Shown: positions 6,111 through 20,000, counted from the first letter of the stretch. The stretch is 20,000 nt of DNA from an uncultured virus (IMG/VR IMGVR_UViG_3300032087_002549) (IMGVR_UViG_3300032087_002549); one strand, 5' to 3'. Numbers and translations are program-made. Notes: generated by a model not told the origin, from the sequence alone.

Positions 6111-6353
6111 ATGGGTGAATACACCCGAACTGATAATGAAGAAAAAGCTAGACTATGGTGTCACGAAAACGATATATGTATAACACCAAGGCAAGCTAAA
6201 TGGGGAGAGCCTATTTGGTATATAGATATAGAAAAAGGTAAATATCCTAATCGTAAAAAACTAGGATCAACACCTAATGTTTATGGACCAATTAGAATAT
6301 GGGAGAAGATAAGTGAATATCAATTATATTATTACAATAAACATGGAAAATAA
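6111..6353 (+). CDS. hypothetical protein
   Basis: Open frame between helicase and the TS-family gene. ATG at 6111 is the first start after the helicase stop; the ORF track uses 6075. Confidence 0.6.
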   Translation: MGEYTRTDNEEKARLWCHENDICITPRQAKWGEPIWYIDIEKGKYPNRKKLGSTPNVYGPIRIWEKISEYQLYYYNKHGK

Positions 6354-6984
6354 ATTTTACAACGCTAATCACGCATACAATTACTTGTGGGATTATATAA
6401 TAAGAAATGGTGTTGATTTTGACAATACAAAGGCTATATTTAATTGTGGCTTTACAATTGAAAAACCATTAGAAAATTATATAACAAACGAAGATCGTAA
6501 TTGGAAGCCTGATTATGCTGAAGCCGAATGGCAATGGTACTTATCTGGCGATCCTAGTGTTAAAAAGCTAGGTGATATATATGGTAAGGTTCCACCTATA
6601 TGGGAAAAAATGGCAGATGAAAATGGTCACGTAAGAAGTAATTACGGTTGGCAATGGCAACGTAATCATCAAATAGATTATGTAGTCAATAAGCTTAAAA
6701 ACCATAAAGAAACAAGACACGCTGCTATAAGTATATACGATTGTAAAGAACACGGTACATATGAGTCTGATACTCCTTGTACATATGCTGTTCAATTTAC
6801 AATACTTAATGATAAACTAAATATGTCTGTTTATATGCGATCTAATGATCTCTGGTACGGCTTTTGTAATGATCAATACTGTTTTAGTATGTTACAAAAA
6901 CTTGTTGCAGAGAGACTGTCTATGGACACAGGGTGGTATTACCATCACGCACATAACATGCATATATATAACGATAAATTATGA
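6343..6984 (+). CDS. thymidylate synthase-family enzyme, dCMP hydroxymethylase (T4 gp42)-like
   Basis: Catalytic PC (Cys codon 6778-6780), YMRSNDLWYGFCND with Asp (6871-6873) at the E. coli ThyA Asn177 position, HIY. gp42-like segments Y...E.QWY.S, P.IW...A...G...SNYGW. Confidence 0.8.
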   Translation: MENKFYNANHAYNYLWDYIIRNGVDFDNTKAIFNCGFTIEKPLENYITNEDRNWKPDYAEAEWQWYLSGDPSVKKLGDIYGKVPPIWEKMADENGHVRSNYGWQWQRNHQIDYVVNKLKNHKETRHAAISIYDCKEHGTYESDTPCTYAVQFTILNDKLNMSVYMRSNDLWYGFCNDQYCFSMLQKLVAERLSMDTGWYYHHAHNMHIYNDKL

Positions 6985-7769
6985 CATATTATATTTATCA
7001 TATTCCAGGTAAAAAAATTGGTGTTACCTGTGATCTTAATAACCGGGTCACAGTTCAGCAAGGTTATAACCCTGATGAATATGAAATACTAGAAAGCTCT
7101 ACTGATGTTGATTATATATCAACAAAAGAGAGAAAATTACAAAGAGAATATGGCTACCGGGTAGATATGGTACCATATAAAAACCTTAAACCAAAATCAA
7201 ATATGAATATAAATATAACTGAACAGACCACAACGTTTCCAGTTCCGGTGGATAAATTAAAAGGTCAATTGTTTGATAATATGGGTATGTCTTGGCAAAC
7301 TGATCACGGTAAGTTAGATATAACACCTAAAACAATAAACTGGATAATGAAAAACGTTAAAACTTCTATGTTTAATAATAATAGAAGTTATGTATATAAC
7401 AAAGCATTTGCTAGGTTCTACGAAAACAATGATGTGTTTGAAAAACCAGTAGTTAAATGCTGTAAAAAACCTTTAAAAATGTTTGAAAACATTAGACAAT
7501 GGGCTGATGAAAGAGGACTATACGATAAAGGTGATACTAAAACTCAATTAATCAAACTACAAGAAGAAATGGGTGAGCTAGCTAAAGCTACACTAGAAAA
7601 CGATAAGCCAGAAGTTATAGATGCTATTGGTGATATGGTTGTAGTATTAACTAACTTAGCACATTTAAATAATGTAAACATAGAAACGTGTATATCAGAA
7701 GCATATAACGTAATATCTAAACGTACAGGTAAAATGGTTAACGGAACATTTGTCAAAGATGCAGATTAA
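6981..7769 (+). CDS. multidomain protein: N-terminal GIY-YIG-like domain plus C-terminal MazG-like NTP pyrophosphohydrolase
   Basis: N-terminus YYIYHI..KKIGVT.DL..R. C-terminus IRQWADERGL...Q..KLQEEMGELA......EVIDAIGDMVVVL...AY..I..R.GKMVNGTFVK (EExxE...D motif). Confidence 0.75.
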   Translation: MTYYIYHIPGKKIGVTCDLNNRVTVQQGYNPDEYEILESSTDVDYISTKERKLQREYGYRVDMVPYKNLKPKSNMNINITEQTTTFPVPVDKLKGQLFDNMGMSWQTDHGKLDITPKTINWIMKNVKTSMFNNNRSYVYNKAFARFYENNDVFEKPVVKCCKKPLKMFENIRQWADERGLYDKGDTKTQLIKLQEEMGELAKATLENDKPEVIDAIGDMVVVLTNLAHLNNVNIETCISEAYNVISKRTGKMVNGTFVKDAD

Positions 7770-7983
7770 AACTAAAGATAAGATAGTACAGGCTGTACTA
7801 AGGAAGATGGATAATCGTAGCATTACTGGCCAAAAGAAATATGGCCAAACAATGTGTAACGAAATAGAAACAGGCAAGAAAGGCTTGTGTATGTTTTTAA
7901 CAGATGTACAAGAAGAGATAATGGATGCTTTATTGTATATTGAAGCTGCTAAAAAATGTATTGAAGATGAGAAGAAAGATTAG
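7759..7983 (+). CDS. small all-alpha protein, possibly MazG-like nucleotide pyrophosphatase
   Basis: RS..G.KKYG.T......L...QEEIMDALLY.E, a common small phage protein with a MazG-like EExxD helix. Confidence 0.55.
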   Translation: MQIKTKDKIVQAVLRKMDNRSITGQKKYGQTMCNEIETGKKGLCMFLTDVQEEIMDALLYIEAAKKCIEDEKKD

Positions 7984-8422
7984 AAGAAAGAAAGGACCTG
8001 TTACAAGTAGAAAAGTTACTTGTGACGGGATAACTTTCGCATCAGGACTAGAAAAACACATGCATTTAGCTCTTAAAAAAGCAAAAATACAAGCTGTTTA
8101 TGAAGGACATACTTATGAAATATTTCCAGCGTACCAGTTTGATACATCGGCTTATGAAAGATGCGCTAACGGTAAAGGTGACTATAAAGATCGTGGACAT
8201 AAAAAGATATTAAACATATCTTATACACCAGACTTTATGGGTCAAGGATTTATTATTGAATGTAAAGGTAGAGCAAACGAAAGTTTTCCTTTACGTTGGA
8301 AGATGTTTAAAAAATATGTTAAAGAACATTTACCTAATGTTATATTGTATAAACCACAAAATCAAAAAGAATGCGAGGAAACAGTAAGGCTAATTTTGAA
8401 AAACAAAGGAGCAAGGAGATAG
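7967..8422 (+). CDS. T7 endonuclease I-like Holliday junction resolvase
   Basis: FASGLE...L......YE, YTPDF.....IIECKGR (PD-(D/E)XK as in T7 gp3). Likely start is MRRKIRRKK at 7967. Confidence 0.8.
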   Translation: MRRKIRRKKGPVTSRKVTCDGITFASGLEKHMHLALKKAKIQAVYEGHTYEIFPAYQFDTSAYERCANGKGDYKDRGHKKILNISYTPDFMGQGFIIECKGRANESFPLRWKMFKKYVKEHLPNVILYKPQNQKECEETVRLILKNKGARR

Positions 8423-9792: not shown

Positions 9793-11514
9793 ATGTGGAG
9801 CAATAGATGGAAAAAAGGCGAAGACTACCCAGAGTGGGCAGACGCCGATGTATATAAAAAAACAATAACAGGAGGATATTTACATAATGGAGAAACACCA
9901 AGAGAAGCGTACAGAAGAGTTGCTAGAACGGTTGCGCAAAGACTACAGAAACCAGAAATGGAAGAGACGTTTTTTACGTACATATGGAAAGGTTGGTTAT
10001 GTCTTGCGTCACCTGTACTTAGCAATACTGGTACTGACCGTGGCTTGCCTATTAGTTGCTTTGGTATCGATGTTGCTGATAGCATTTACGACATAGGTAC
10101 TAAAAACCTAGAAATGATGCTACTAGCTAAGCATGGCGGTGGTGTTGGTATTGGTCTAAACATGATAAGACCTTCTGGTGCAAATATTACAATGAATGGT
10201 ACATCAGATGGTGTTGTACCTTTCTGTAAAATATATGACTCTACAATACTAGCTACCAACCAAGGAGCTGTAAGAAGAGGTGCTGCATCAGTTAACTTAA
10301 ATATAGATCATAAAGACTGGGAAGACTGGTTAGAAATAAGAGAGCCTAAAGGTGATGTTAATAGACAATCATTAAACCTACATCAATGTACTATAATTGG
10401 TGATAAGTTTATGCGTAAGCTTAGAGATGGTGATAAAGTTGCAAGACGTAAATGGGGTAAATTGCTACAAAAGCGTAAAGCAACAGGTGAACCTTATATA
10501 ATGTACAAGGGTAATATTAATAAAAATAACCCAGCTGCATACAAAGATAATGCTCTGAAAGTATTTATGACAAATATTTGTTCAGAGATAGTATTACACA
10601 CGGATGAAAACCATAGCTTCGTTTGCTGTTTATCTAGTTTAAACTTAGCTAAATACCACGAATGGAAAGACTCTAATTTAATATATGATAGCATATGGTT
10701 TTTAGACGGTGTATTAGAAGAGTTTATACAGAAAGCAAAAAATAGAAGAGGATTTGAAAACGCTGTAAGATCTGCAGAAAAAGGTAGAGCACTAGGTTTA
10801 GGTGTTTTAGGTTGGCATACATATCTACAACAAAAAGGATTTCCTTTTGAAGGATTATTAGCACAATATGAGACAAGAAGAATATTTTCACAAATTAAAA
10901 TTGAAAGCGAAAGAGCTAGTATGGCTTTGGCAGAGCAGTATGGAGAACCTCTTTGGTGTGTTGGAACTGGTTTTCGTAATACTCATTTACGTGCTATTGC
11001 TCCTACTGTTAGCAATAGTAAGCTTGCTGGTAATATTTCACCGGGTATTGAACCTTGGGCTGCTAACGTCTTTACAGACCAAAGCGCAAAAGGAACTTTC
11101 ATCCGAAAAAATCCAACTTTAATAAAAGAATTAGAAAAACATAAATTAAACAATAAAAAAACATGGGACCAAATACTGAGAGACGGAGGTTCAATACAAG
11201 GTATCAAACAATTAGAGAACGTTACTATAGGAGAACACAACGTACCTATAAAAGAAGTTTACAAAACTTTTAAAGAAATAAATCAATTAGAGTTAGTTAA
11301 TCAAGCTGGTATCAGACAGCAATATATAGATCAGTCTGTAAGTTTGAATTTAGCTTTCCCTTCACAAGCAGATCCTAAATGGATTAATAAAGTACATTTA
11401 GAAGCTTGGAAAAAAGGTATTAAAACTCTATATTATATGAGAACCGAGTCTGTATTAAGAGGTGATATTGCATCTCAAGCTATGGACCCTAACTGTTTAA
11501 GTTGCGATGGATAA
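9793..11514 (+). CDS. nrdA: class I ribonucleotide reductase alpha subunit (no ATP cone)
   Basis: SPVLSN, PISCF, GGGVG, NICSEI, CCLSSLNL, RALGLG, AIAPT, DQSVSLNL, KTLYY, C-terminal CLSCDG. Confidence 0.95.
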   Translation: MWSNRWKKGEDYPEWADADVYKKTITGGYLHNGETPREAYRRVARTVAQRLQKPEMEETFFTYIWKGWLCLASPVLSNTGTDRGLPISCFGIDVADSIYDIGTKNLEMMLLAKHGGGVGIGLNMIRPSGANITMNGTSDGVVPFCKIYDSTILATNQGAVRRGAASVNLNIDHKDWEDWLEIREPKGDVNRQSLNLHQCTIIGDKFMRKLRDGDKVARRKWGKLLQKRKATGEPYIMYKGNINKNNPAAYKDNALKVFMTNICSEIVLHTDENHSFVCCLSSLNLAKYHEWKDSNLIYDSIWFLDGVLEEFIQKAKNRRGFENAVRSAEKGRALGLGVLGWHTYLQQKGFPFEGLLAQYETRRIFSQIKIESERASMALAEQYGEPLWCVGTGFRNTHLRAIAPTVSNSKLAGNISPGIEPWAANVFTDQSAKGTFIRKNPTLIKELEKHKLNNKKTWDQILRDGGSIQGIKQLENVTIGEHNVPIKEVYKTFKEINQLELVNQAGIRQQYIDQSVSLNLAFPSQADPKWINKVHLEAWKKGIKTLYYMRTESVLRGDIASQAMDPNCLSCDG

Positions 11515-12334
11515 TATAACAATAAAACAAATACTAGATCCAGTCGATCCTAAGAGGTTCTGGCTGAACTATTGGGGTAAAAAACATTTAGTTATTAGAA
11601 GAAATACATTTAAAAATTTATTTAAATGGCATGATTTTACTAATTTATTAAATGGTTACCCTAGAAATTTAAACCACTTACAGATACTAGATTATGATGG
11701 TAAAGGTAATAAGTGGTGTTTAGATAAAGTAAATAAAGGTAAATTAAAATTACCTATGTTAAAGAAAAAAGAAGTATTAGACCTGTGGAGGTCTGGTAAA
11801 ACATTTGTTCTTTCAATGGCAGAATATACTAAACAAGACTTTGTTGAAATATGCGATGAGCTTGAAAGATATTTTGAAAGAGGTCAAGTTAATATATATT
11901 GCTCAAGTAAAAAAGATGCTGTTGGTTTTCCAGCGCATTGCGATAGTACAGAAAACTTTTTGTTTCATACAGAGGGTAAAGTTAAATGGACTATATATGA
12001 TAACTCTGCACCTGAAAGAAAACCTGGAAAGGTTATTGATGAGTTTGTTTTAGAAGCTGGAGATTTATTGTACATACCACAGTACAGATACCATAAAGCC
12101 GAATCACTTACGCCTAGAATATCTATAAGTATTCATTTTCCAAACAAACAAAATCAATCATTAAAAAAGTTTCAGATAACTAAAAAAGGTGTGAAAAGAG
12201 ATGGTTGGTATAACTGGATGCCCGAAGATTTATATTATGATGCTAAAGGTAATAGCACAAGAGATGTACCTAGAAAATTTAGGATGGGCGGAACACGATG
12301 GAAAGAAACGTATTTTAATAATTTAAAAAAATGA
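11507..12334 (+). CDS. JmjC/cupin-4 Fe(II)/2-oxoglutarate dioxygenase (RoxA/YcfD-like)
   Basis: F...YWGKK.LVIRR, N.Y.S.....GF.AHCD...NF....EG...W, LEAGDLLYIP...YH (HxD...H triad). Confidence 0.85.
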   Translation: MDNITIKQILDPVDPKRFWLNYWGKKHLVIRRNTFKNLFKWHDFTNLLNGYPRNLNHLQILDYDGKGNKWCLDKVNKGKLKLPMLKKKEVLDLWRSGKTFVLSMAEYTKQDFVEICDELERYFERGQVNIYCSSKKDAVGFPAHCDSTENFLFHTEGKVKWTIYDNSAPERKPGKVIDEFVLEAGDLLYIPQYRYHKAESLTPRISISIHFPNKQNQSLKKFQITKKGVKRDGWYNWMPEDLYYDAKGNSTRDVPRKFRMGGTRWKETYFNNLKK

Positions 12335-12531
12335 ATAGAGTAGCAATAGTAGAAGCTCCTCACAATATTAGAAACGCAACGTTAATGCCTAATTTGAATA
12401 AGGCGTTTTGCGCTAAATGGGTTATTGACAATGTAGAAAAGATAGAGGATATTGAAACAAAGGATTATGATTGTTTAATATTGTTTGGTGATAAAGAAAA
12501 ATTACAAAAAATAGTAAATGAAAGCAGGTAA
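12331..12531 (+). CDS. hypothetical protein (66 aa)
   Basis: Overlaps both neighbours (ATGA at 12331), consistent with translational coupling. Confidence 0.6.
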   Translation: MNRVAIVEAPHNIRNATLMPNLNKAFCAKWVIDNVEKIEDIETKDYDCLILFGDKEKLQKIVNESR

Positions 12532-12862
12532 AATATGGGGTAAAACAGAAATGATACATAAAAATGGTGTCATGGAGTTTCACCGAATAGAATTTAATAA
12601 AGGATTTAAATGCTCTGAACATGAGCATAGATTTAAATGGAACGGATTTTTTGTAGAATCCGGTAAAATGCTTGTCAGGGTATGGCAAGAAGATCAAGGT
12701 CTTGTTGATGAAACAATACTTGAAGCAGGTGATTTTACTATGGTAAAACCTGGTAAGATACATCAGTTTGAAGGTGTTGAAGATGGTGTTGCTTTTGAAT
12801 TATATTGGGCTGAGTTTAATCACGATGATATAATCAGAAGAACAGCTGGTACTAAGACATGA
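12518..12862 (+). CDS. cupin-domain protein, sugar isomerase-like
   Basis: KIWG, CSEHEH..K.N.F.VESG, L.AGD...VKPG.IHQF: cupin motifs 1 and 2, resembling small mannose-6-P / D-lyxose isomerase-type cupins. Confidence 0.7.
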   Translation: MKAGKIWGKTEMIHKNGVMEFHRIEFNKGFKCSEHEHRFKWNGFFVESGKMLVRVWQEDQGLVDETILEAGDFTMVKPGKIHQFEGVEDGVAFELYWAEFNHDDIIRRTAGTKT

Positions 12863-13497
12863 AAAACATAGCGGTAGTTATACCAGCAAGACTTAATAGT
12901 ACTAGACTCAAACACAAAATGTTAATGAAGTTCGATGATGAACCTCTAATACGTCTTGTGTTTGATAAAGTACGTATGATGGGATATGATACATTTGTAG
13001 CAACAGACAGCAAGCGTATTGCTAAACTGTTTCCTATGAAATGGTGTATACAAACAGGTAAAGCCGATAACGGTACACATAGATTATCTAAACGAGTTGT
13101 ATTAGATTTAGTAAATGGATATGATTATGTATTAAACATACAAGGTGATATGCTTGATATAAATCTAGATACAATTAAACCTATAATAAAAGCATTAAAC
13201 AAAAAAGATGTAGTATGTTTAACTGCATATACTAAAGGCGCTAAATCAGATGATGTTAAAGTTATACATCAAAATGGTAAAGCAATGTGGTTTACAAGAT
13301 CTGACATAGGTTATGGTGATAGACACTTAGGTATATATGCTTATAAACCTTATTTGTTAAAAGCATATAGAGCTATGAAAGATAAATATAAATCAGAAAA
13401 CTTAGAACAAAACAAAATATTAGGTTTATACGATATTGATGTAGTTGAAACTACATATAATGGCGTAGAAATTAACACTTATAATGATATAAAATGA
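12859..13497 (+). CDS. kdsB: CMP-Kdo synthetase (3-deoxy-manno-octulosonate cytidylyltransferase)
   Basis: VIPARLNSTRL..K.L, VATD, NGT.R, NIQGD, VKV.......A.WFTR, HLGIYAY, E.LEQ. Confidence 0.9.
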   Translation: MKNIAVVIPARLNSTRLKHKMLMKFDDEPLIRLVFDKVRMMGYDTFVATDSKRIAKLFPMKWCIQTGKADNGTHRLSKRVVLDLVNGYDYVLNIQGDMLDINLDTIKPIIKALNKKDVVCLTAYTKGAKSDDVKVIHQNGKAMWFTRSDIGYGDRHLGIYAYKPYLLKAYRAMKDKYKSENLEQNKILGLYDIDVVETTYNGVEINTYNDIK

Positions 13498-14120
13498 AAT
13501 ATGCAGAAAAATACAAAGCACTACACGAAGGTGCTGAATATAAAATAAAATATCCAGACGGCGAATGGAGAGTAAAAAAAGGTAACTATGGTAATGGTGC
13601 AGGTTTTAAAACTGTACTAAAACCTGTTAAAAAGTGGGTTGATGAAAACCCTGGCACAATGTTATTAGATTATGGTTGTGGATCTGGTATGGTTTGGGAT
13701 AATAAAATGGCTATTTACAACGGTGAAAAATATACTAAACCAGGTAAACGTGTTCCTGAAAAATATGATGCCATGACACTTACACAGTTTCTTGGTGAAA
13801 ACTTACAGGGTTTTTACAGGTACGATCCTTTTCACCCTAAGTATTATATGAGACCACCAGATATTAAATTTGATTTAACAGTTGTTAATGATGTTATAGA
13901 GCACGTGCCATTAGAAGAGCTGCCTGCATTGTTAAGAGATATAGCTGATTTAACGTGTACTTGTGGCGCAATAGTAATGTCAATACCACAAAGCCCTTCA
14001 CACGCGCATTTTATGGACGGTGAAAATATGCACTGCACGTTAATGCCAAGAGGTGAGTGGAAAAAATTATTAAGAAAATATATACCAAAACATAAAATAA
14101 TAATAAATTTTACTCCATGA
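13494..14120 (+). CDS. class I SAM-dependent methyltransferase
   Basis: LLDYGCGSG, YDP, FDL....DVIEHVP, DGEN.H.T.....W: a small-molecule or sugar-type MTase pattern. No DPPY/NPPY or PC motif of DNA MTases. Confidence 0.85.
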   Translation: MKYAEKYKALHEGAEYKIKYPDGEWRVKKGNYGNGAGFKTVLKPVKKWVDENPGTMLLDYGCGSGMVWDNKMAIYNGEKYTKPGKRVPEKYDAMTLTQFLGENLQGFYRYDPFHPKYYMRPPDIKFDLTVVNDVIEHVPLEELPALLRDIADLTCTCGAIVMSIPQSPSHAHFMDGENMHCTLMPRGEWKKLLRKYIPKHKIIINFTP

Positions 14121-14869
14121 AAAAACCGATATTAATAGCTGGTCCGTGTAGTCTAGAAGGTAGAATACAAGCTCATGAAATATCTAACAAATGTCAAGAG
14201 CTAGCGGACAAATATGGCTTTGACTATTATTTCAAAGCTTCATTTGACAAGGCTAATAGAACGTCTGTAAACTCTAAACGAGGTATTGGTATAGACAAAG
14301 CTATAGATATATTTGCTGAGTTGAAAGATTTAGATAGTTGTAAGATTACAACAGATATACATGAGCCTTGGCAAGCAGATAGGTTAGCTGACGTTGTAGA
14401 CATTATACAAATACCAGCTTATTTATGTAGACAAACTGATTTATTAGTTGCTGCAGGTAATACGTTTAGAAATATTAATATTAAAAAAGGACAGTTTATA
14501 AATGGTAGTAATATGGTGCATGCTGTTAATAAAGTTAAAAGTACAGGTAATAATAATATTATGCTAACTGAAAGAGGTAGTATGTTTGGTATGGGTGATC
14601 TTGTTGTAGATTTTAGACAGATCGTAGATATGAAAGAGTTAGGTGTACCAGTTATAATGGACTGCACCCACTCAACACAAAGACCTAATTCAGGTAGCAC
14701 AACGGCTGGTCAACCACGCTATGCTATACACATTGCAAAAGCTGCGAAAGCAGTTGGCGTTGATGGTTACTTTTTTGAAGTACACGAAAATCCTAGCGCT
14801 GCATGGAGTGACGGGTCTAATATGATTAAGTTAGATAAATTTGAAGAAATATTAAAACAATTAGTATGA
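14117..14869 (+). CDS. kdsA: Kdo-8-phosphate synthase (metal-dependent type)
   Basis: IAGPCSLE, FKASFDKANRTS...RG.G, TDIHE, QIPAYLCRQTDLL, NIKKGQF, TERG, D.THS.Q.P, FFEVH..P..A.SDG. Confidence 0.95.
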   Translation: MKKPILIAGPCSLEGRIQAHEISNKCQELADKYGFDYYFKASFDKANRTSVNSKRGIGIDKAIDIFAELKDLDSCKITTDIHEPWQADRLADVVDIIQIPAYLCRQTDLLVAAGNTFRNINIKKGQFINGSNMVHAVNKVKSTGNNNIMLTERGSMFGMGDLVVDFRQIVDMKELGVPVIMDCTHSTQRPNSGSTTAGQPRYAIHIAKAAKAVGVDGYFFEVHENPSAAWSDGSNMIKLDKFEEILKQLV

Positions 14870-15516
14870 GAGTATTTATAGGGCATGATAGCAGATACCC
14901 AGACGCTACTAAAGCATGCTACAATTCGATTAAAGCATATAACAAAAACATTAAAGTAATACCTTTATATAAACATAAGTTAATAAACAAAGGTGTGTAT
15001 GGTAGAAAAGATATACAAGGTGAATCAACAGAGTTTTCATTTACTAGGTTTTATGTGCCACTTATGTCTGCCTACAAAGGTGTGTCTATGTTTTGTGATA
15101 ATGACTTTATATTTAGAGATGATGTTGCTAAAATTTTTAAACAACTAAACGATAGAGATTTAGTAGCTTGTGTTAAGCATAAGTATTATGAATCAAAATC
15201 TACCAAAATGGACGGCATTGTAAATAAAGCGTATCCAAGAAAAAACTGGAGTTCATTAATGGTTTTTAATAATGAAAAGTTAAAAGATATTTTAACAAAA
15301 GAATATTTAGACAATGCTAGCGCTGCGGATTTACACCAATTAGCTTGGGCTGAAAACAAAATAAGTGAGATTGATAAAATATGGAATCATTTAGTTGGAG
15401 AACAAGATGGTTCTAGTAACGCTAAGGGTATACACTTTACAAATGGTGGACCTTGGTTTAAAGAGTATAAAGATTGTGAATTTGCAAATGAATGGAGAAA
15501 GATATTAGGAAAATAG
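14866..15516 (+). CDS. GT-A glycosyltransferase, CDI/GT8-like
   Basis: VFIG.D.R, STEFSFTRF.VP, F.DND (DxD), KMDG.....YPRKNWSSLM, LHQ..W, WN.LVG, IHFTNGGPWF. Confidence 0.85.
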   Translation: MRVFIGHDSRYPDATKACYNSIKAYNKNIKVIPLYKHKLINKGVYGRKDIQGESTEFSFTRFYVPLMSAYKGVSMFCDNDFIFRDDVAKIFKQLNDRDLVACVKHKYYESKSTKMDGIVNKAYPRKNWSSLMVFNNEKLKDILTKEYLDNASAADLHQLAWAENKISEIDKIWNHLVGEQDGSSNAKGIHFTNGGPWFKEYKDCEFANEWRKILGK

Positions 15517-16319
15517 TAAAAGATAAATCAGTTATATTTGTTGGTAATTCTGTAGAAATAATGAAGCATGAACATGCTAAATTTATAGAAAGCCACGATA
15601 TAGTTGTTAAGTTTGGTAGAGCATTAGAAGCTACATCATTACAAGAAAAATCACTAAGCGAAAGAGTTGATGTATGGGTTACTGGTCAGTTTAGATCTCA
15701 TGCATTTAGAAAAATGAAAGATCATTTTAAACCTGGTGGTAAGTTTGAAAATACACATATATTACTAAATAGATCAAGAGGTAACTTTCATTTAAAAGAG
15801 TTTGTTATTGAAAAACATATGTGTCCTCATTTAATAAAATATGGTTATCAAGAAATGTATAGTGATAAAGAAATTATTGATACTATGAAAGTTTTTGATA
15901 AAGATATTATAGGTACTGATCTTAGACCATCAAGTGGTTTTCTAACTATATTGTGGTTTATAGAAAAAGTTAAAACATATAAAAGCTTATCATTGATAGG
16001 CTTTGATTTCTTTACAAAATCAACACCAGCTAAAAGAGTTGGATATAATAAAAAATCTAAAAAATCAAACATAAGCGCACACGATCCACATAGCTGGCAT
16101 TTACCTATATATTTAAGGGCAGCAAGTGCTCATGATACTTATCTCGAAGAACAATTTGTTTCTTGGTTAACAAGAACAAATCAAGTTACTTGGCATATAT
16201 TAAGTGATTTAAAAAAGAGAAGTATTAAGTATACAGGCTGGGCAAAGAACTTACCAATGATAATAACAGCCTCTAATGAAAGAACTAAATATTACAAATC
16301 AAGGGTTAAAACTACTTAG
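15492..16319 (+). CDS. GT29 (sialyltransferase-like) glycosyltransferase, candidate CMP-Kdo transferase
   Basis: L-motif-like VIFVGNS.........FIESHDIVVKF, S-motif-like RPSSGFLTI.........L.LIGFDFF, VS-like HDTYLE (HxxxxE). Confidence 0.75.
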   Translation: MEKDIRKIVKDKSVIFVGNSVEIMKHEHAKFIESHDIVVKFGRALEATSLQEKSLSERVDVWVTGQFRSHAFRKMKDHFKPGGKFENTHILLNRSRGNFHLKEFVIEKHMCPHLIKYGYQEMYSDKEIIDTMKVFDKDIIGTDLRPSSGFLTILWFIEKVKTYKSLSLIGFDFFTKSTPAKRVGYNKKSKKSNISAHDPHSWHLPIYLRAASAHDTYLEEQFVSWLTRTNQVTWHILSDLKKRSIKYTGWAKNLPMIITASNERTKYYKSRVKTT

Positions 16320-16566
16320 CGCCACAAGGCTTACCATTAGCTATATTAACCCATTTTTCTTTTTGGAACCAATCACGTAGTGTAGCTCCTTTTTTTCTAG
16401 CGCCTTTTACATTAGACTTACTAGATCTTTTATATTTACCTTGAGCTGCAGCACTACGTTTAGCACGTATTACTTTTTGCTTTTCAGCTTTGCTCATGCT
16501 TTTGTATTTATTATATGGCAAACAAACTTTCTTTGTTCCACCACCTTTAATTTTACTTTTTGGCAT
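16312..16566 (-). CDS. small basic protein (84 aa)
   Basis: MPKSKIKGGGTKKVCLP...LRDWFQKEKWVNIANGKPCG; strongly Lys/Arg-rich. ATG at 16566 is preferred over GTG at 16587. Confidence 0.75.
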   Translation of the reverse strand: MPKSKIKGGGTKKVCLPYNKYKSMSKAEKQKVIRAKRSAAAQGKYKRSSKSNVKGARKKGATLRDWFQKEKWVNIANGKPCGAK

Positions 16567-16675
16567 TTTTAGGTTTTTTATGACCACATCCTTTCTTCAT
16601 AAGTGCTTTATGTTTTCTAAGACTACTTACATCATGGACAGATCCGTCCTTACAATACATTTTATGATTTTTCAT
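16553..16675 (-). CDS. small basic protein (40 aa)
   Basis: Read by eye: MKNHKMYCKDGSVHDVSSLRKHKALMKKGCGHKKPKNAKK; overlaps both neighbours. Confidence 0.6.
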   Translation of the reverse strand: MKNHKMYCKDGSVHDVSSLRKHKALMKKGCGHKKPKNAKK

Positions 16676-17054
16676 TTTTTGATTTTAAAGTTTTATTAGC
16701 ATCTTGTTCCCATGGTAATTTTCTACTCTTTGTATTTATTTGATCAGTAGCTATTTTTAAGCTTTTACCGCCTGGGTTAGCTTTCCATTTGTAGTATAAA
16801 CTATTAAATTGTAATTGAGGTTCATGATCTTTACCAAATAAACTCATTTGTCTTTTGTGTCCTTTTTCATGCTTTATAGTTTCAAGCATTTGTTTAGGTT
16901 TTAAATCTTTATTTACAAATATAGTTTTATTCTCATCAATATAACCCCAATGTTTGTTAGTAGGCATATCAACAAGCTTAACGACATTATCTAGTTTGTT
17001 AGAACTTGGATGCAAGCTTAACAACTGATGAAAAGATTTCATTTTAAATCCCAT
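16662..17054 (-). CDS. putative zinc metallopeptidase (HExxH)
   Basis: WGY......IFVNKDL......ETIKHEKGH..Q and LPWEQDA: a minimal zincin pattern. Confidence 0.6.
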   Translation of the reverse strand: MGFKMKSFHQLLSLHPSSNKLDNVVKLVDMPTNKHWGYIDENKTIFVNKDLKPKQMLETIKHEKGHKRQMSLFGKDHEPQLQFNSLYYKWKANPGGKSLKIATDQINTKSRKLPWEQDANKTLKSKNEKS

Positions 17055-17158
17055 TACTTCTTTTTTCTTCTAGTTTTTCTTTTGGTTTTTTTACCTTTTT
17101 TCTTTTCGTTTTTTGATGCCCAAACCGCTTTACGTTGAGCTGCACTAGCATATCCCAT
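17054..17158 (-). CDS. protamine-like basic peptide (34 aa)
   Basis: Read by eye: MGYASAAQRKAVWASKNEKKKGKKTKRKTRRKKK; TAATG overlaps at both ends. Confidence 0.65.
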   Translation of the reverse strand: MGYASAAQRKAVWASKNEKKKGKKTKRKTRRKKK

Positions 17159-17247
17159 TATCTTCTTTTTTTAATTTTTACACAACTACCTTTAGAGTAT
17201 TTTTTAGTGCCAGCTTTTCTTTTGTAGCCTTTCCAGCACTTAGGCAT
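17158..17247 (-). CDS. basic peptide with CWKGY...CVK motif (29 aa)
   Basis: Read by eye: MPKCWKGYKRKAGTKKYSKGSCVKIKKRR; TAATG overlap with the next gene. Confidence 0.7.
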   Translation of the reverse strand: MPKCWKGYKRKAGTKKYSKGSCVKIKKRR

Positions 17248-17251
17248 ATAA

Positions 17252-17392
17252 TTATTTTTTACCACCTTTTCCCATTTTACCTGGTCCGCCTTTTTTAGTG
17301 CATCTTACACCCCATCCTGAAGCGTAGGCGCTAGGCCATACTTTAAATTTTCTTTTTGCAGCTGATTTACAAGCTGGACTAATTTTTCCCAT
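17252..17392 (-). CDS. basic peptide with KVWPSAYASG motif (46 aa)
   Basis: Read by eye: MGKISPACKSAAKRKFKVWPSAYASGWGVRCTKKGGPGKMGKGGKK. Confidence 0.7.
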   Translation of the reverse strand: MGKISPACKSAAKRKFKVWPSAYASGWGVRCTKKGGPGKMGKGGKK

Positions 17393-17606
17393 TTCCTTTA
17401 ATTTTTTCGATTGAACTAATACCAAAGCAACCTAGTGTAACCCATACAAATGAGTTATAAACTACTTCATTAATAATAAGATCTTTTTCAGCTATCACAC
17501 TTGTTGCTAAATCTGCTACAGCAAATAATGTCATTACTATAAATGACATAAATCCTATAACATTTTTTTCATTAATTTCGTTTTTATCTTTAAATAATGC
17601 CCACAT
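17379..17606 (-). CDS. two-TM membrane protein, holin candidate
   Basis: Two hydrophobic stretches (VIGFMSFIVMTLFAVADL; VVYNSFVWVTLGCFGI), charged C-terminus, close to the endolysin. Confidence 0.55.
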   Translation of the reverse strand: MWALFKDKNEINEKNVIGFMSFIVMTLFAVADLATSVIAEKDLIINEVVYNSFVWVTLGCFGISSIEKIKGNGKN

Positions 17607-19998: not shown

Positions 19999-20000
19999 TC

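Follow-up and report, generated by a model that had tools for sequence, protein, structure and literature searches.

A phage gene cassette for probable Kdo synthesis and transfer that may glycosylate threonine-rich fibre proteins

Introduction

What would a phage build with genes of its own for the acidic sugar 3-deoxy-D-manno-octulosonate (Kdo), and on which acceptor? The question is raised by a 20,000-nucleotide (nt) stretch of DNA from an uncultured virus (IMG/VR IMGVR_UViG_3300032087_002549; 'the window' hereafter means this whole stretch), in which eight genes directly after nrdA encode a Kdo-8-phosphate synthase (KdsA), a CMP-Kdo synthetase-like protein (KdsB-like), two glycosyltransferases (GTs) and several tailoring-type or small proteins. 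An earlier note, made from the sequence alone, had read them as a self-contained pathway for a Kdo-containing glycan. Glycosyltransferases of ocean phages are routinely dismissed as 'LPS modification' genes (LPS, lipopolysaccharide). Our analysis leads us to propose, at roughly even odds (about 0.5), a phage system for O-glycosylation in which a partly methylated glycan, containing hexose and Kdo, would be placed on the phage's own Thr-rich fibre proteins. This reading of sequences and predicted structures is the simplest account of the gene linkages. Taken on their own, the donor is probably a Kdo-type sugar, and the evidence leans somewhat towards protein as the acceptor.

If correct, the proposal would introduce a dedicated system for protein-Kdo glycosylation, the first of its kind, and give GT29-type enzymes their first function in viruses of bacteria. 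It would also provide a testable function for a gene set that uncultured marine phage contigs carry by the hundred. An abundant group of ocean phages would then display a surface chemically like host LPS or capsule, and phage-made glycans would shape adsorption, particle stickiness, grazing or immune recognition at sea. A phage Kdo sugar-coating of Thr-rich fibres is a kind of virus coating that we have not found described in print.

Results and discussion

A cassette with a KdsA and a KdsB-like protein

Just as the earlier note had it, eight plus-strand open reading frames (ORFs) follow nrdA between positions 11507 and 16319, with successive overlaps of 4–25 nt. Their coordinates, strand and assignments are:

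11507–12334, plus strand: g1, JmjC-type Fe(II)/2-oxoglutarate hydroxylase, 275 aa (Pfam JmjC_2, 5.5e-16)
12331–12531, plus strand: g2, 66-aa ORF with no family match, conserved in relatives
12518–12862, plus strand: g3, small cupin, 114 aa (Pfam Cupin_2, 2e-7)
12859–13497, plus strand: g4, KdsB-like CMP-Kdo synthetase, short form, 212 aa (Pfam CTP_transf_3, 1.4e-22; structure database matches)
13494–14120, plus strand: g5, class I S-adenosylmethionine (SAM) methyltransferase, 208 aa (Pfam Methyltransf_23, 2.2e-7; phrog_24759, 1.5e-18)
14117–14869, plus strand: g6, KdsA (Kdo-8-phosphate synthase), 250 aa (NCBIfam equivalogs; Pfam DAHP_synth_1, 1.7e-58)
14866–15516, plus strand: g7, GT8-like retaining GT-A glycosyltransferase, 216 aa, DxD motif at D78-N-D80 (phrog_28018, 2.7e-49; fold)
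15492–16319, plus strand: g8, GT29-fold (sialyltransferase-like) candidate Kdo transferase, 275 aa (predicted fold; Pfam GT29 scores of homologues)

The cassette keeps its synteny in each of the 18 related IMG/VR loci of sufficient length and is no accidental series of ORFs. With the Kdo genes and g8, a second transferase and three enzymes of tailoring type are predicted to be co-transcribed.

The Kdo-8-phosphate synthase expected here is borne out by g6, which over nearly its full length scores above two NCBIfam equivalog cut-offs (NF003543, 331 vs 242 bits; TIGR01362, 325.8 vs 314) and is by these matches a bona fide KdsA. The CMP-Kdo synthetase assignment also holds in the form of a KdsB-like protein, though one below the NCBIfam KdsB cut-offs: g4 reaches 81 bits against a Pfam CTP_transf_3 cut-off of 22.6, the five best of its seven NCBIfam matches are KdsB models, and all 13 of its sequence matches in the Protein Data Bank (PDB) are KdsB (best 2y6p, 5.1e-18). 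The alignment with 2y6p retains the PARxxSxRL (PARLxSTRLK), QGD and LEQ stretches, which we take to be the nucleotide/sugar functional motifs of KdsB. General scans of the cassette and the rest of the window, none of them aimed at these families, revealed no phosphatase or sugar-isomerase family (KdsC, KdsD).

Two transferases with GT8-like and sialyltransferase folds

Sequence searches with the two putative transferases (g7, sequence P0001; g8, sequence P0002) were little informative by themselves. Single-sequence searches of the PDB gave chance matches only (ferritin, lumazine synthase), and profile searches gave none for g7 and, for g8, a marginal match to ST3Gal-I over 50 residues (E 0.44). 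Moreover, g7 has no Pfam match, and of the 26 homologues that were aligned (from 120 listed among 579 collected) only one scores against Glyco_transf_8, at E 0.028; D78, N79 and D80 are unchanged across the 26. The AlphaFold2 model of g7, with a predicted local distance difference test score (pLDDT) of 90.7, yielded Foldseek matches to LgtC (2e-9; TMq 0.60), GlyE, WbbM (TMq 0.69), the GT8 protein 3tzt and glycogenin, and also to the related UGGT and LARGE1. From its predicted fold, g7 is a GT8-like retaining GT-A enzyme; of the previous label 'CDI-like GT', the glycosyltransferase part stands and the fold is better stated in these terms.

For g8, 139 homologues were collected and 34 of 120 listed were aligned (set A1), 29 of which match Glyco_transf_29 (PF00777) at E≤1. 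All ten flagged homologues that were rescanned scored 25.0–31.1 bits against the Pfam GT29 cut-off of 23, the match in seven of them spanning profile positions 58/60 to 269–271 of 272. In Foldseek, the g8 model (pLDDT 87.8) had sialyltransferase entries throughout ranks 1–46. Upon VIA realignment, the top 14 rows were animal GT29 enzymes (ST3Gal-I, ST6GalNAc2, ST8SiaIII, ST6Gal1) with Z 12.1–14.3, ST3Gal-I reaching Z 14.3 with a root-mean-square deviation of 3.3 Å over 182 residues; the Campylobacter GT42 enzymes Cst-I/II followed at Z 9.7–11.5 and Maf at Z 7.7. H203, H214 and E219 are unchanged across the aligned homologues. The consensus of the GT29 sialylmotifs L, S, III and VS served for a comparison made by eye only, in which 'VGNSVE' (17–22) aligned with the start of motif L of ST3Gal-I, 'RPSSGF' lay at 145–150, H203 lay within 'PHSWHLP' and H214-x4-E219 fitted H-x4-E. 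The motif names are those in use for GT29 (PMC5811610). Thus, the model and the homologues above the Pfam cut-off uphold the GT29 assignment made before: g8 has the predicted GT-A variant 2 fold of a sialyltransferase (CMP-ulosonate transferase), and fold together with linkage to kdsA and kdsB makes g8 a candidate Kdo transferase that would use CMP-Kdo.

The g8 family is viral, with a length of about 260–280 aa. At least 333 of 587 candidate IMG/VR stretches encode g8 relatives, and a scan of 185,579 species genomes, with patterns that catch close relatives only and say nothing of distant cellular GT29 proteins, gave two matches, both on 1-kb single-cell contigs. Close relatives of g8 therefore appear to be almost only viral.

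Kdo supply is an optional insert at a fixed position

We fetched 137 loci of the window's lineage, 57 of them distinct, and 39 contained the whole interval from the cupin gene to g7. The JmjC gene g1 is present in all 39. By contrast, kdsB and kdsA occur in 17, always both and always between the cupin gene and g7, and are absent from 22, where the cupin gene abuts g7 with a gap of 0–39 nt; the g5 methyltransferase and g2 are each found in 8 of the 39. The invariant core in this lineage is JmjC, cupin, GT8-like and GT29-like, and Kdo supply is an optional insert. The co-occurrence of kdsA, kdsB and GT29 that had been predicted for relatives is thus seen in the former 17 loci and fails in the latter 22. 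Since the pair is inserted exactly between the cupin gene and the transferases wherever it is present, the transferases appear to be tied to Kdo; where it is dispensed with, Kdo precursors or CMP-Kdo must come from the pool of the host. Such optional supply fits a donor already made by every Gram-negative host, and CMP-Kdo is, to our knowledge, the sole CMP-ulosonate that all such hosts supply. Hence, the Kdo link of the earlier proposal survives (on the KdsA match, these insertions and the L221 operon described below) and its 'self-contained' character lacks support, given that KdsC and KdsD were not recognized in scans not aimed at them and that so many loci lack kdsB–kdsA.

That same absence could be taken to mean that there is no single pathway, kdsA and kdsB being ordinary auxiliary genes that sustain host LPS and the other cassette genes unrelated passengers of a variable region. 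The region behind the nrd genes is indeed a known accessory-gene site in marine phages, and pelagiphage Mosig carries a different glycan gene set there. Nevertheless, the pair has the same place within the block in every case, with 4-nt overlaps with its neighbours; KdsA, cupin, GT29-like and GT8-like proteins recur together in an unrelated myophage; and GT29-like proteins occur fused to tailoring enzymes. We consider it improbable that these genes act apart from each other.

A further feature of the cassette is that g8, g5, g1 and g7 diverge much faster than nrdA, KdsA or the cupin; in the complete relative G002 (70,178 bp, CheckV 100%; cassette at locus L013), for instance, they are 71–82% identical to those of the window (g8, 71%) compared to 93–99% for nrdA (93.5%), KdsA and the cupin. 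Fast divergence of these four proteins would be expected of enzymes that determine specificity.

The transferases recur amid tail genes in other phage lineages

Contigs of other lineages (33–51% G+C) were found with the most distant g8 homologues. Six of them (L105, L106, L109, L110, L111 and L112) share the order phrog_26179, GT29-like, methyltransferase, GT8-like, amid tail-fibre and fibre-assembly genes, and L112 also has a tail sheath gene. Their methyltransferase, like that of the cultured Stenotrophomonas phage DLP_6, belongs to the PHROG of g5 (phrog_24759), and its gene is placed either between the GT29-like and GT8-like genes or next to them. In L118, g7 and g8 are downstream of nrdA and nrdB. 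In the myophage loci L204 and L221, one continuous operon encodes a Thr-rich protein of >2300 aa, a phrog_26179 protein, KdsA, a cupin and the GT29-like and GT8-like proteins; that of L221 begins with the Thr-rich ORF (2349 aa) and continues with phrog_26179, KdsA, cupin, GT29-like, GT8-like, 96-aa ORF, tail sheath and tail tube. The cupin gene directly follows kdsA in both, its product matching g3 (1.6e-40), and genes for radical SAM/SPASM and short-chain dehydrogenase/reductase (SDR) proteins are inserted in the L204 operon. Two natural fusions were identified, one joining a g8-like protein to a g1-type JmjC domain (P0118, 461 aa) and the other a GT29-like protein to a radical SAM/SPASM domain (L112:2852–4387). 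Since g1 itself is absent from the other lineages with the module, it would be an accessory rather than a general maker of the attachment site.

The KdsA proteins of L221:8918–10312 and L204:13519–14925 have a C-terminal extension of about 200 aa that matches no Pfam family and could replace the missing KdsB or KdsC.

These lineages also bear on whether the same system might handle another sugar, namely an octulosonic acid modified by the cupin, JmjC and methyltransferase enzymes and elsewhere by radical SAM or SDR proteins, with phages that lack kdsA and kdsB perhaps using another CMP-ulosonic acid of the host. The shortness of g4 and its scores below every KdsB cut-off would be consistent with this, as would the highly conserved cupin that always accompanies the transferases and follows KdsA in L221, and the radical SAM/SPASM and SDR genes and the radical SAM fusion just described. 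On the other side, KdsA is a clean equivalog match, family scans of the cassette revealed no NeuB-type nonulosonic-acid synthase and no aminotransferase, and CMP-Kdo from every Gram-negative host fits the relatives without supply genes. We therefore regard a different sugar as unlikely and retain a Kdo-type donor.

Parts of the module occur in cultured phages. In DLP_6, the methyltransferase, g7-like and g8-like genes are consecutive (AAY80_200–202) and a phrog_26179 member lies beside the neck and sheath genes, so that the idea is testable at the bench now. In cyanophage S-SCSM2R, a homologue of g7 with 40% identity lies three genes upstream of KdsB and KdsA; no g8-family (A1) gene was detected in the 18.6-kb stretch L021 and no phrog_26179 member in the whole record. 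Pelagiphage Mosig (L022, MT647606.1 124832–130666) has its g7 homologue in a glycan cluster behind nrdA, nrdB and RuvC, together with two methyltransferases, a sulfotransferase, another glycosyltransferase and three hypotheticals, and has neither a g8-family nor a phrog_26179-family gene.

DLP_6 (KU682439.2) also has unannotated frames at both genome ends, 165860–168489 up to the right end (876 codons) and 3–1652 from the left end (550 codons) up to AAY80_002, which is the phrog_26179 homologue. The end frames and the 229-bp terminal repeat may form one fibre-like gene; Ser+Thr amounts to only 19–25% in them.

Giant Thr-rich repeat proteins as putative acceptors

The genes next to the module suggest what may be glycosylated. 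Each of L105, L106 and L109–L112 has a neighbouring ORF with 29–41% Ser+Thr, and L118 has one with 49%; these ORFs consist of short repeats such as S-T-T-T-T-F-N-T-S-K. In G002, two Thr-rich genes (L101: 13572–16466 and 17502–19946; 54% and 63% Ser+Thr) are directly followed by a phrog_26179-family gene at 20000–20893 (2.8e-103), and in all five genomes at least 98% complete with the cassette (G002–G006) an ORF with 57–63% Ser+Thr is immediately followed by a gene of the phrog_26179 family. The giant proteins, which include L221:809–7858 and L204:2569–12465, have 800–3300 aa, 50–63% Ser+Thr and repeats of about ten residues in which Thr alternates and aromatics are regularly spaced; such proteins may be disordered chains like mucins or, alternatively, Thr-ladder beta-solenoids. 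In L101 of G002, a 350-aa protein (16457–17509) encoded between the Thr-rich pair has a weak Methyltransf_25 match (E 0.0088) and an 'ECGFGMG' motif, which suggests a second methyltransferase at the acceptor locus.

We also ran the reverse test, fetching viral loci by the peptide motif TTTTFNTT alone, which gave 77 loci in 52 groups (truly 51, as L217 and L218 are the same contig). Within a 9-kb flank, a Thr-rich ORF is present in 47 groups, a phrog_26179-family gene in 41, a g8-family gene in 12 and a g7-family gene in 11. In 39 of the 41 groups with the phrog_26179 gene, the Thr-rich ORF lies upstream of it on the same strand and ends no more than 600 nt away. Of the Thr-rich contigs that lacked g8 in the flank, five were searched whole; g8 was found elsewhere in the two most complete and in none of the three fragments.

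The phrog_26179 proteins (about 300 aa, with an invariant 'KPHP'; other members are L105:1511–2383, L110:1137–2045 and L118:9553–10446) gave no Pfam match, no PDB match at E≤10 and an hhalign probability of 0.1 against the g8 family when searched as a family (A5). Among the best 120 of 449 homologues there was no Pfam domain, and names were only 'hypothetical protein' or gene-call coordinates. We consider the family a further candidate glycosyltransferase, and the 'KPHP' residues raise the suspicion that it might be a transferase of the CMP-sugar (HP-motif) type.

Transferase genes adjoin those of the putative acceptor proteins in L105–L112 and L221 and lie apart from them in the window's lineage, where in G002 about 33 kb separate the cassette (53–58 kb) from the Thr-rich genes (13.5–20 kb). 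Overall, synteny across lineages favours the phage's Thr-rich fibre-like proteins as the acceptor.

The usual reading of such genes in marine phages is host-envelope remodelling, in which phage-made CMP-Kdo and the two transferases would decorate host LPS or lipooligosaccharide, capsule or surface glycoproteins, blocking superinfection or stopping progeny from sticking to debris. The structural neighbours do include lipooligosaccharide enzymes (LgtC for g7, Cst-I/II for g8), and the window's cassette is co-oriented with early/middle replication genes; receptor-related genes, moreover, would co-evolve in tail-fibre clusters too. Basic or aromatic C-terminal tails are present on g8 and g1 homologues, and LgtC-type enzymes sit on membranes via tails of this kind. 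Published readings point the same way, pelagimyophage GT8 genes in host-recognition clusters having been interpreted as O-chain modifiers (PMC7029224) and phage kdsA and kdsB as LPS/cell-wall genes (PMC5332604, PMC12801897). Left unexplained, however, are the pairing with Thr-rich repeat proteins (39/41) and an operon that runs into tail sheath and tube genes. Close g8 relatives on just two tiny contigs among all the species genomes would be odd for a gene borrowed from host envelope loci, and neither the window nor G002 showed an integrase or lysogeny module. We judge envelope remodelling to be rather unlikely.

A model for fibre glycosylation and the evidence against it

In the protein O-glycosylation that we propose, KdsA would join host arabinose-5-phosphate and phosphoenolpyruvate to give Kdo-8-phosphate, a host phosphatase would release Kdo, and the KdsB-like enzyme would convert it to CMP-Kdo, as family membership suggests. 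From its fold and DxD motif, the GT8-like enzyme would add a hexose from a UDP-sugar with retention of configuration, and the GT29-fold enzyme would then cap or extend the glycan with Kdo from CMP-Kdo, as fold and gene linkage indicate. The methyltransferase would O-methylate a sugar, and the JmjC hydroxylase and cupin would tailor the glycan or the acceptor. The acceptors would most likely be the phage's giant Thr/Ser-rich fibre-like repeat proteins, encoded in the structural module and paired with the phrog_26179 protein. In the window's lineage, the supply/transfer cassette and the acceptor pair would occupy separate loci, compared to one operon amid tail genes in other lineages.

More tentatively, many marine and freshwater tailed phages might build a 'viral mucin' of Thr-ladder fibres coated by an acidic, Kdo-capped, methylated O-glycan. 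The kit would comprise the phrog_26179, GT8-like and GT29-fold proteins and the methyltransferase, with Kdo supply, JmjC, cupin and radical-SAM proteins as optional parts.

Several observations weigh against fibre glycosylation by this cassette. The window's own fragment (CheckV 33%) has no Thr-rich gene, so that the link to the acceptor comes from relatives, and in this lineage the cassette lies behind nucleotide-metabolism genes, co-oriented with early/middle genes and outside the structural module. The g8-family gene was within the 9-kb flank in only 12 of the 52 TTTTFNTT groups, and the Thr-rich and phrog_26179 pair may often work without g7 and g8; conversely, S-SCSM2R and Mosig have g7 homologues and no phrog_26179 member. 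The family assignments have their own weak points, as g8 itself (P0002) has no Pfam GT29 score at all, g4 is under every KdsB cut-off (NF003952, 113.8 vs 193 bits; TIGR00466, 69.2 vs 155.2), and GT8 and GT29/GT42 relatives such as LgtC and Cst-II also build lipooligosaccharide. Finally, many of the fetched loci are related by descent, and the counts overstate the number of independent events.

Relation to known glycosylation systems

As proposed for the present system, mycobacteriophages use glycosyltransferases of their own to decorate their own structural proteins. Their virion glycosylation also includes methyltransferases, and we know of neither an acidic ulosonic sugar nor genes for sugar-nucleotide supply in it, nor of a GT29-fold enzyme or giant Thr-repeat acceptors. 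It has been described for Che8, Corndog and Myrna (Freeman et al. 2023, as cited in PMC12619734 and PMC12801897), and mycobacteriophages are the only phages with experimentally documented glycosylated particles in the account that the latter two papers give of the field. Differences lie in the Gram-positive-type hosts and in the position of the glycans, which capsid and tail-tube subunits bear at their C-termini (PMC12619734).

With GT29 sialyltransferases, g8 shares the fold and, as in bacterial GT29, it has neither a transmembrane anchor nor the conserved disulfide; it differs in its viral family and in P0002 being too divergent for the Pfam model. Membrane-free bacterial GT29-like proteins are described by Petit et al. 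(2018, PMC5811610), a paper on GT29 evolution in which the words virus, viral and phage occur 0 times. The plant GT29 protein RCKT1, a putative CMP-Kdo transferase for rhamnogalacturonan-II (PMC11288761), may be a precedent for a GT29 enzyme that uses CMP-Kdo instead of sialic acid. Promiscuity provides another, since Neisseria Lst sialyltransferase and Maf flagellin glycosyltransferases can transfer Kdo, Maf placing it on Ser/Thr of a filament protein (bioRxiv 10.1101/2020.06.03.131540; PMC8092323). These too are sialyltransferase- or nonulosonate-type enzymes accepting CMP-Kdo, and Maf is a distant structural neighbour of g8; but Kdo is for them a promiscuous substitute donor, whereas the phage cassette has dedicated kdsA and kdsB genes.

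The phage KdsA and KdsB-like genes adjoin transferases, as in the bacterial Kdo pathway. The latter comprises KdsD, KdsA, KdsC and KdsB, with WaaA (GT30), KpsC/KpsS (GT107) and WbbB (GT99) as transferases. The phage set differs in having no recognized KdsD or KdsC in scans not targeted at them, in the GT-A-variant sialyltransferase fold of g8 compared to the GT-B-type folds of the bacterial enzymes, and in its proposed protein acceptor, as against lipid A, O-antigen or capsule linker. If true, g8 would represent a fourth structural class of candidate Kdo transferase and extend the role of GT29 beyond eukaryotes and a few bacteria. The earlier view that no phage system of this kind had been characterized is fair for the transferases; phage kdsA and kdsB, however, are already in print, in marine viral genome TARA_ERS478052_N000008 (PMC5332604) and as ORF264/265 of cyanophage S-SCSM2R (PMC12801897). 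KdsA and KdsB are what these phages share with the cassette, and the treatment of them in the two papers names no Kdo transferase or acceptor. A literature search, most subscription journals being outside it, found no phage GT29-type enzyme, phage Kdo transferase or Thr-rich fibre glycan acceptor.

A last parallel concerns g1: protein glycosylation can involve an Fe(II)/2-oxoglutarate protein hydroxylase encoded with, or fused to, glycosyltransferases, as in P0118. Such hydroxylase-plus-transferase systems include the collagen hydroxylysine Gal-Glc pathway, Mimivirus L230 and the Skp1 hydroxyproline pathway, to which the GT8-type Gat1 belongs. The cassette differs in that its hydroxylase is a JmjC/ribosomal-oxygenase type and absent from the module's other lineages.

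Tailoring and small proteins of the cassette

The hydroxylase assignment of g1 (JmjC_2, 58.7 bits vs a cut-off of 22) is supported by an HxD...H triad (H144, D146, H196) unchanged in 18 orthologues. Its profile matches MINA53 (7.9e-18, residues 7–199), NO66 (1.8e-10) and FIH (1e-4) in the PDB, all of them protein hydroxylases, and this kinship fits a protein substrate. With 275 aa compared to 442 for MINA53/NO66, g1 lacks the dimerization and winged-helix domains that make up the extra length of those proteins. A role as a KdoO-like Kdo hydroxylase was considered and set aside, there being none among 35 PDB matches (E≤1) and no such family in the Pfam scan (E≤0.1), an absence that is no proof.

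The cupin g3 (Cupin_2, 31 bits vs 27.2) is the most conserved protein of the block, with 83–100% identity where g1, g7 and g8 have about 50%. Its PDB sequence search gave nothing usable (best E 0.21), and its Atlas neighbours are all viral cupins, a minority sharing Lyx_isomer and MannoseP_isomer labels, from which comes the idea that it might be a sugar-phosphate isomerase. The g5 methyltransferase reaches 31.2 bits against a Methyltransf_23 cut-off of 27, and g2 is 84–100% identical within the window's clade and 36% in L063/L064.

Genomic context, DNA modification and host

The window, with about 32% G+C, comes from a viral fragment of 21.6 kb in IMG/VR. The 3' end of nrdA (9793–11514) is overlapped for 8 nt by g1, and the block that leads up to the cassette is:

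upstream of 11507, plus strand: Erf-type annealing protein, exonuclease, primase-helicase, thymidylate-synthase-family gene, MazG, endonuclease, nrdB and nrdA

This context is the basis for a very different acceptor, phage DNA, in which 5-hydroxymethyl- or 5-methylcytosine would bear a hexose-Kdo glycan, like a larger version of T-even glucosyl-hydroxymethylcytosine. The 'thymidylate synthase' (6313–6984, plus strand) matches T4 dCMP hydroxymethylase best (4.6e-17) and has Asp ('CND' aligned to T4 'RND') at the position where the Asn of thymidylate synthase specifies uracil; its end is overlapped by a gene for a 262-aa MazG-type pyrophosphatase (6981–7769), the cassette lies directly after these nucleotide-metabolism genes, and one of 34 g8 homologues weakly matches a TET-associated glycosyltransferase family (7.1e-4). 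Against this, the transferase module of six other lineages is amid tail-fibre and not DNA-metabolism genes, and none of DLP_6, S-SCSM2R and Mosig has a hydroxymethylase-like gene, though all have g7 homologues and DLP_6 also one of g8. Moreover, the nearest solved JmjC relatives of g1 act on proteins, and neither g7 nor g8 has a fold match to DNA glycosyltransferases. Glycosylation of DNA is thus, in our estimate, highly improbable. Independently of the cassette, the genes at 6313–7769 may indicate phage DNA with 5-hydroxymethyl- or 5-methylcytosine.

The host is likely a marine member of the Flavobacteriia, because the G002 terminase matches 87 phage records, 86 of which are named phages with hosts in Flavobacterium, Cellulophaga, Tenacibaculum and Maribacter, and the primase-helicase is nearest to that of Cellulophaga phage phi10:1 (42%). 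These matches outweigh the signs of a SAR11 host, namely two homologues labelled 'Pelagibacterales MAG' and a short DNA match to pelagiphage Mosig. G002 also encodes a portal protein, and its L101 region includes a phage-borne GroEL (1.4e-131) and GroES at 6249–8055.

On the 3' side of the cassette, the strand switches to lysis-side genes that include an M15 endolysin. The first minus-strand gene (16312–16587) is convergent with g8 and overlaps it by 8 nt (16312–16319), so that a terminator would have no space between these two transcription units. Farther upstream, the window encodes on the plus strand (1775–2545) a 256-aa protein with a weak match to sigma-70 region 2 and to a PHROG of RNA polymerase sigma factors.

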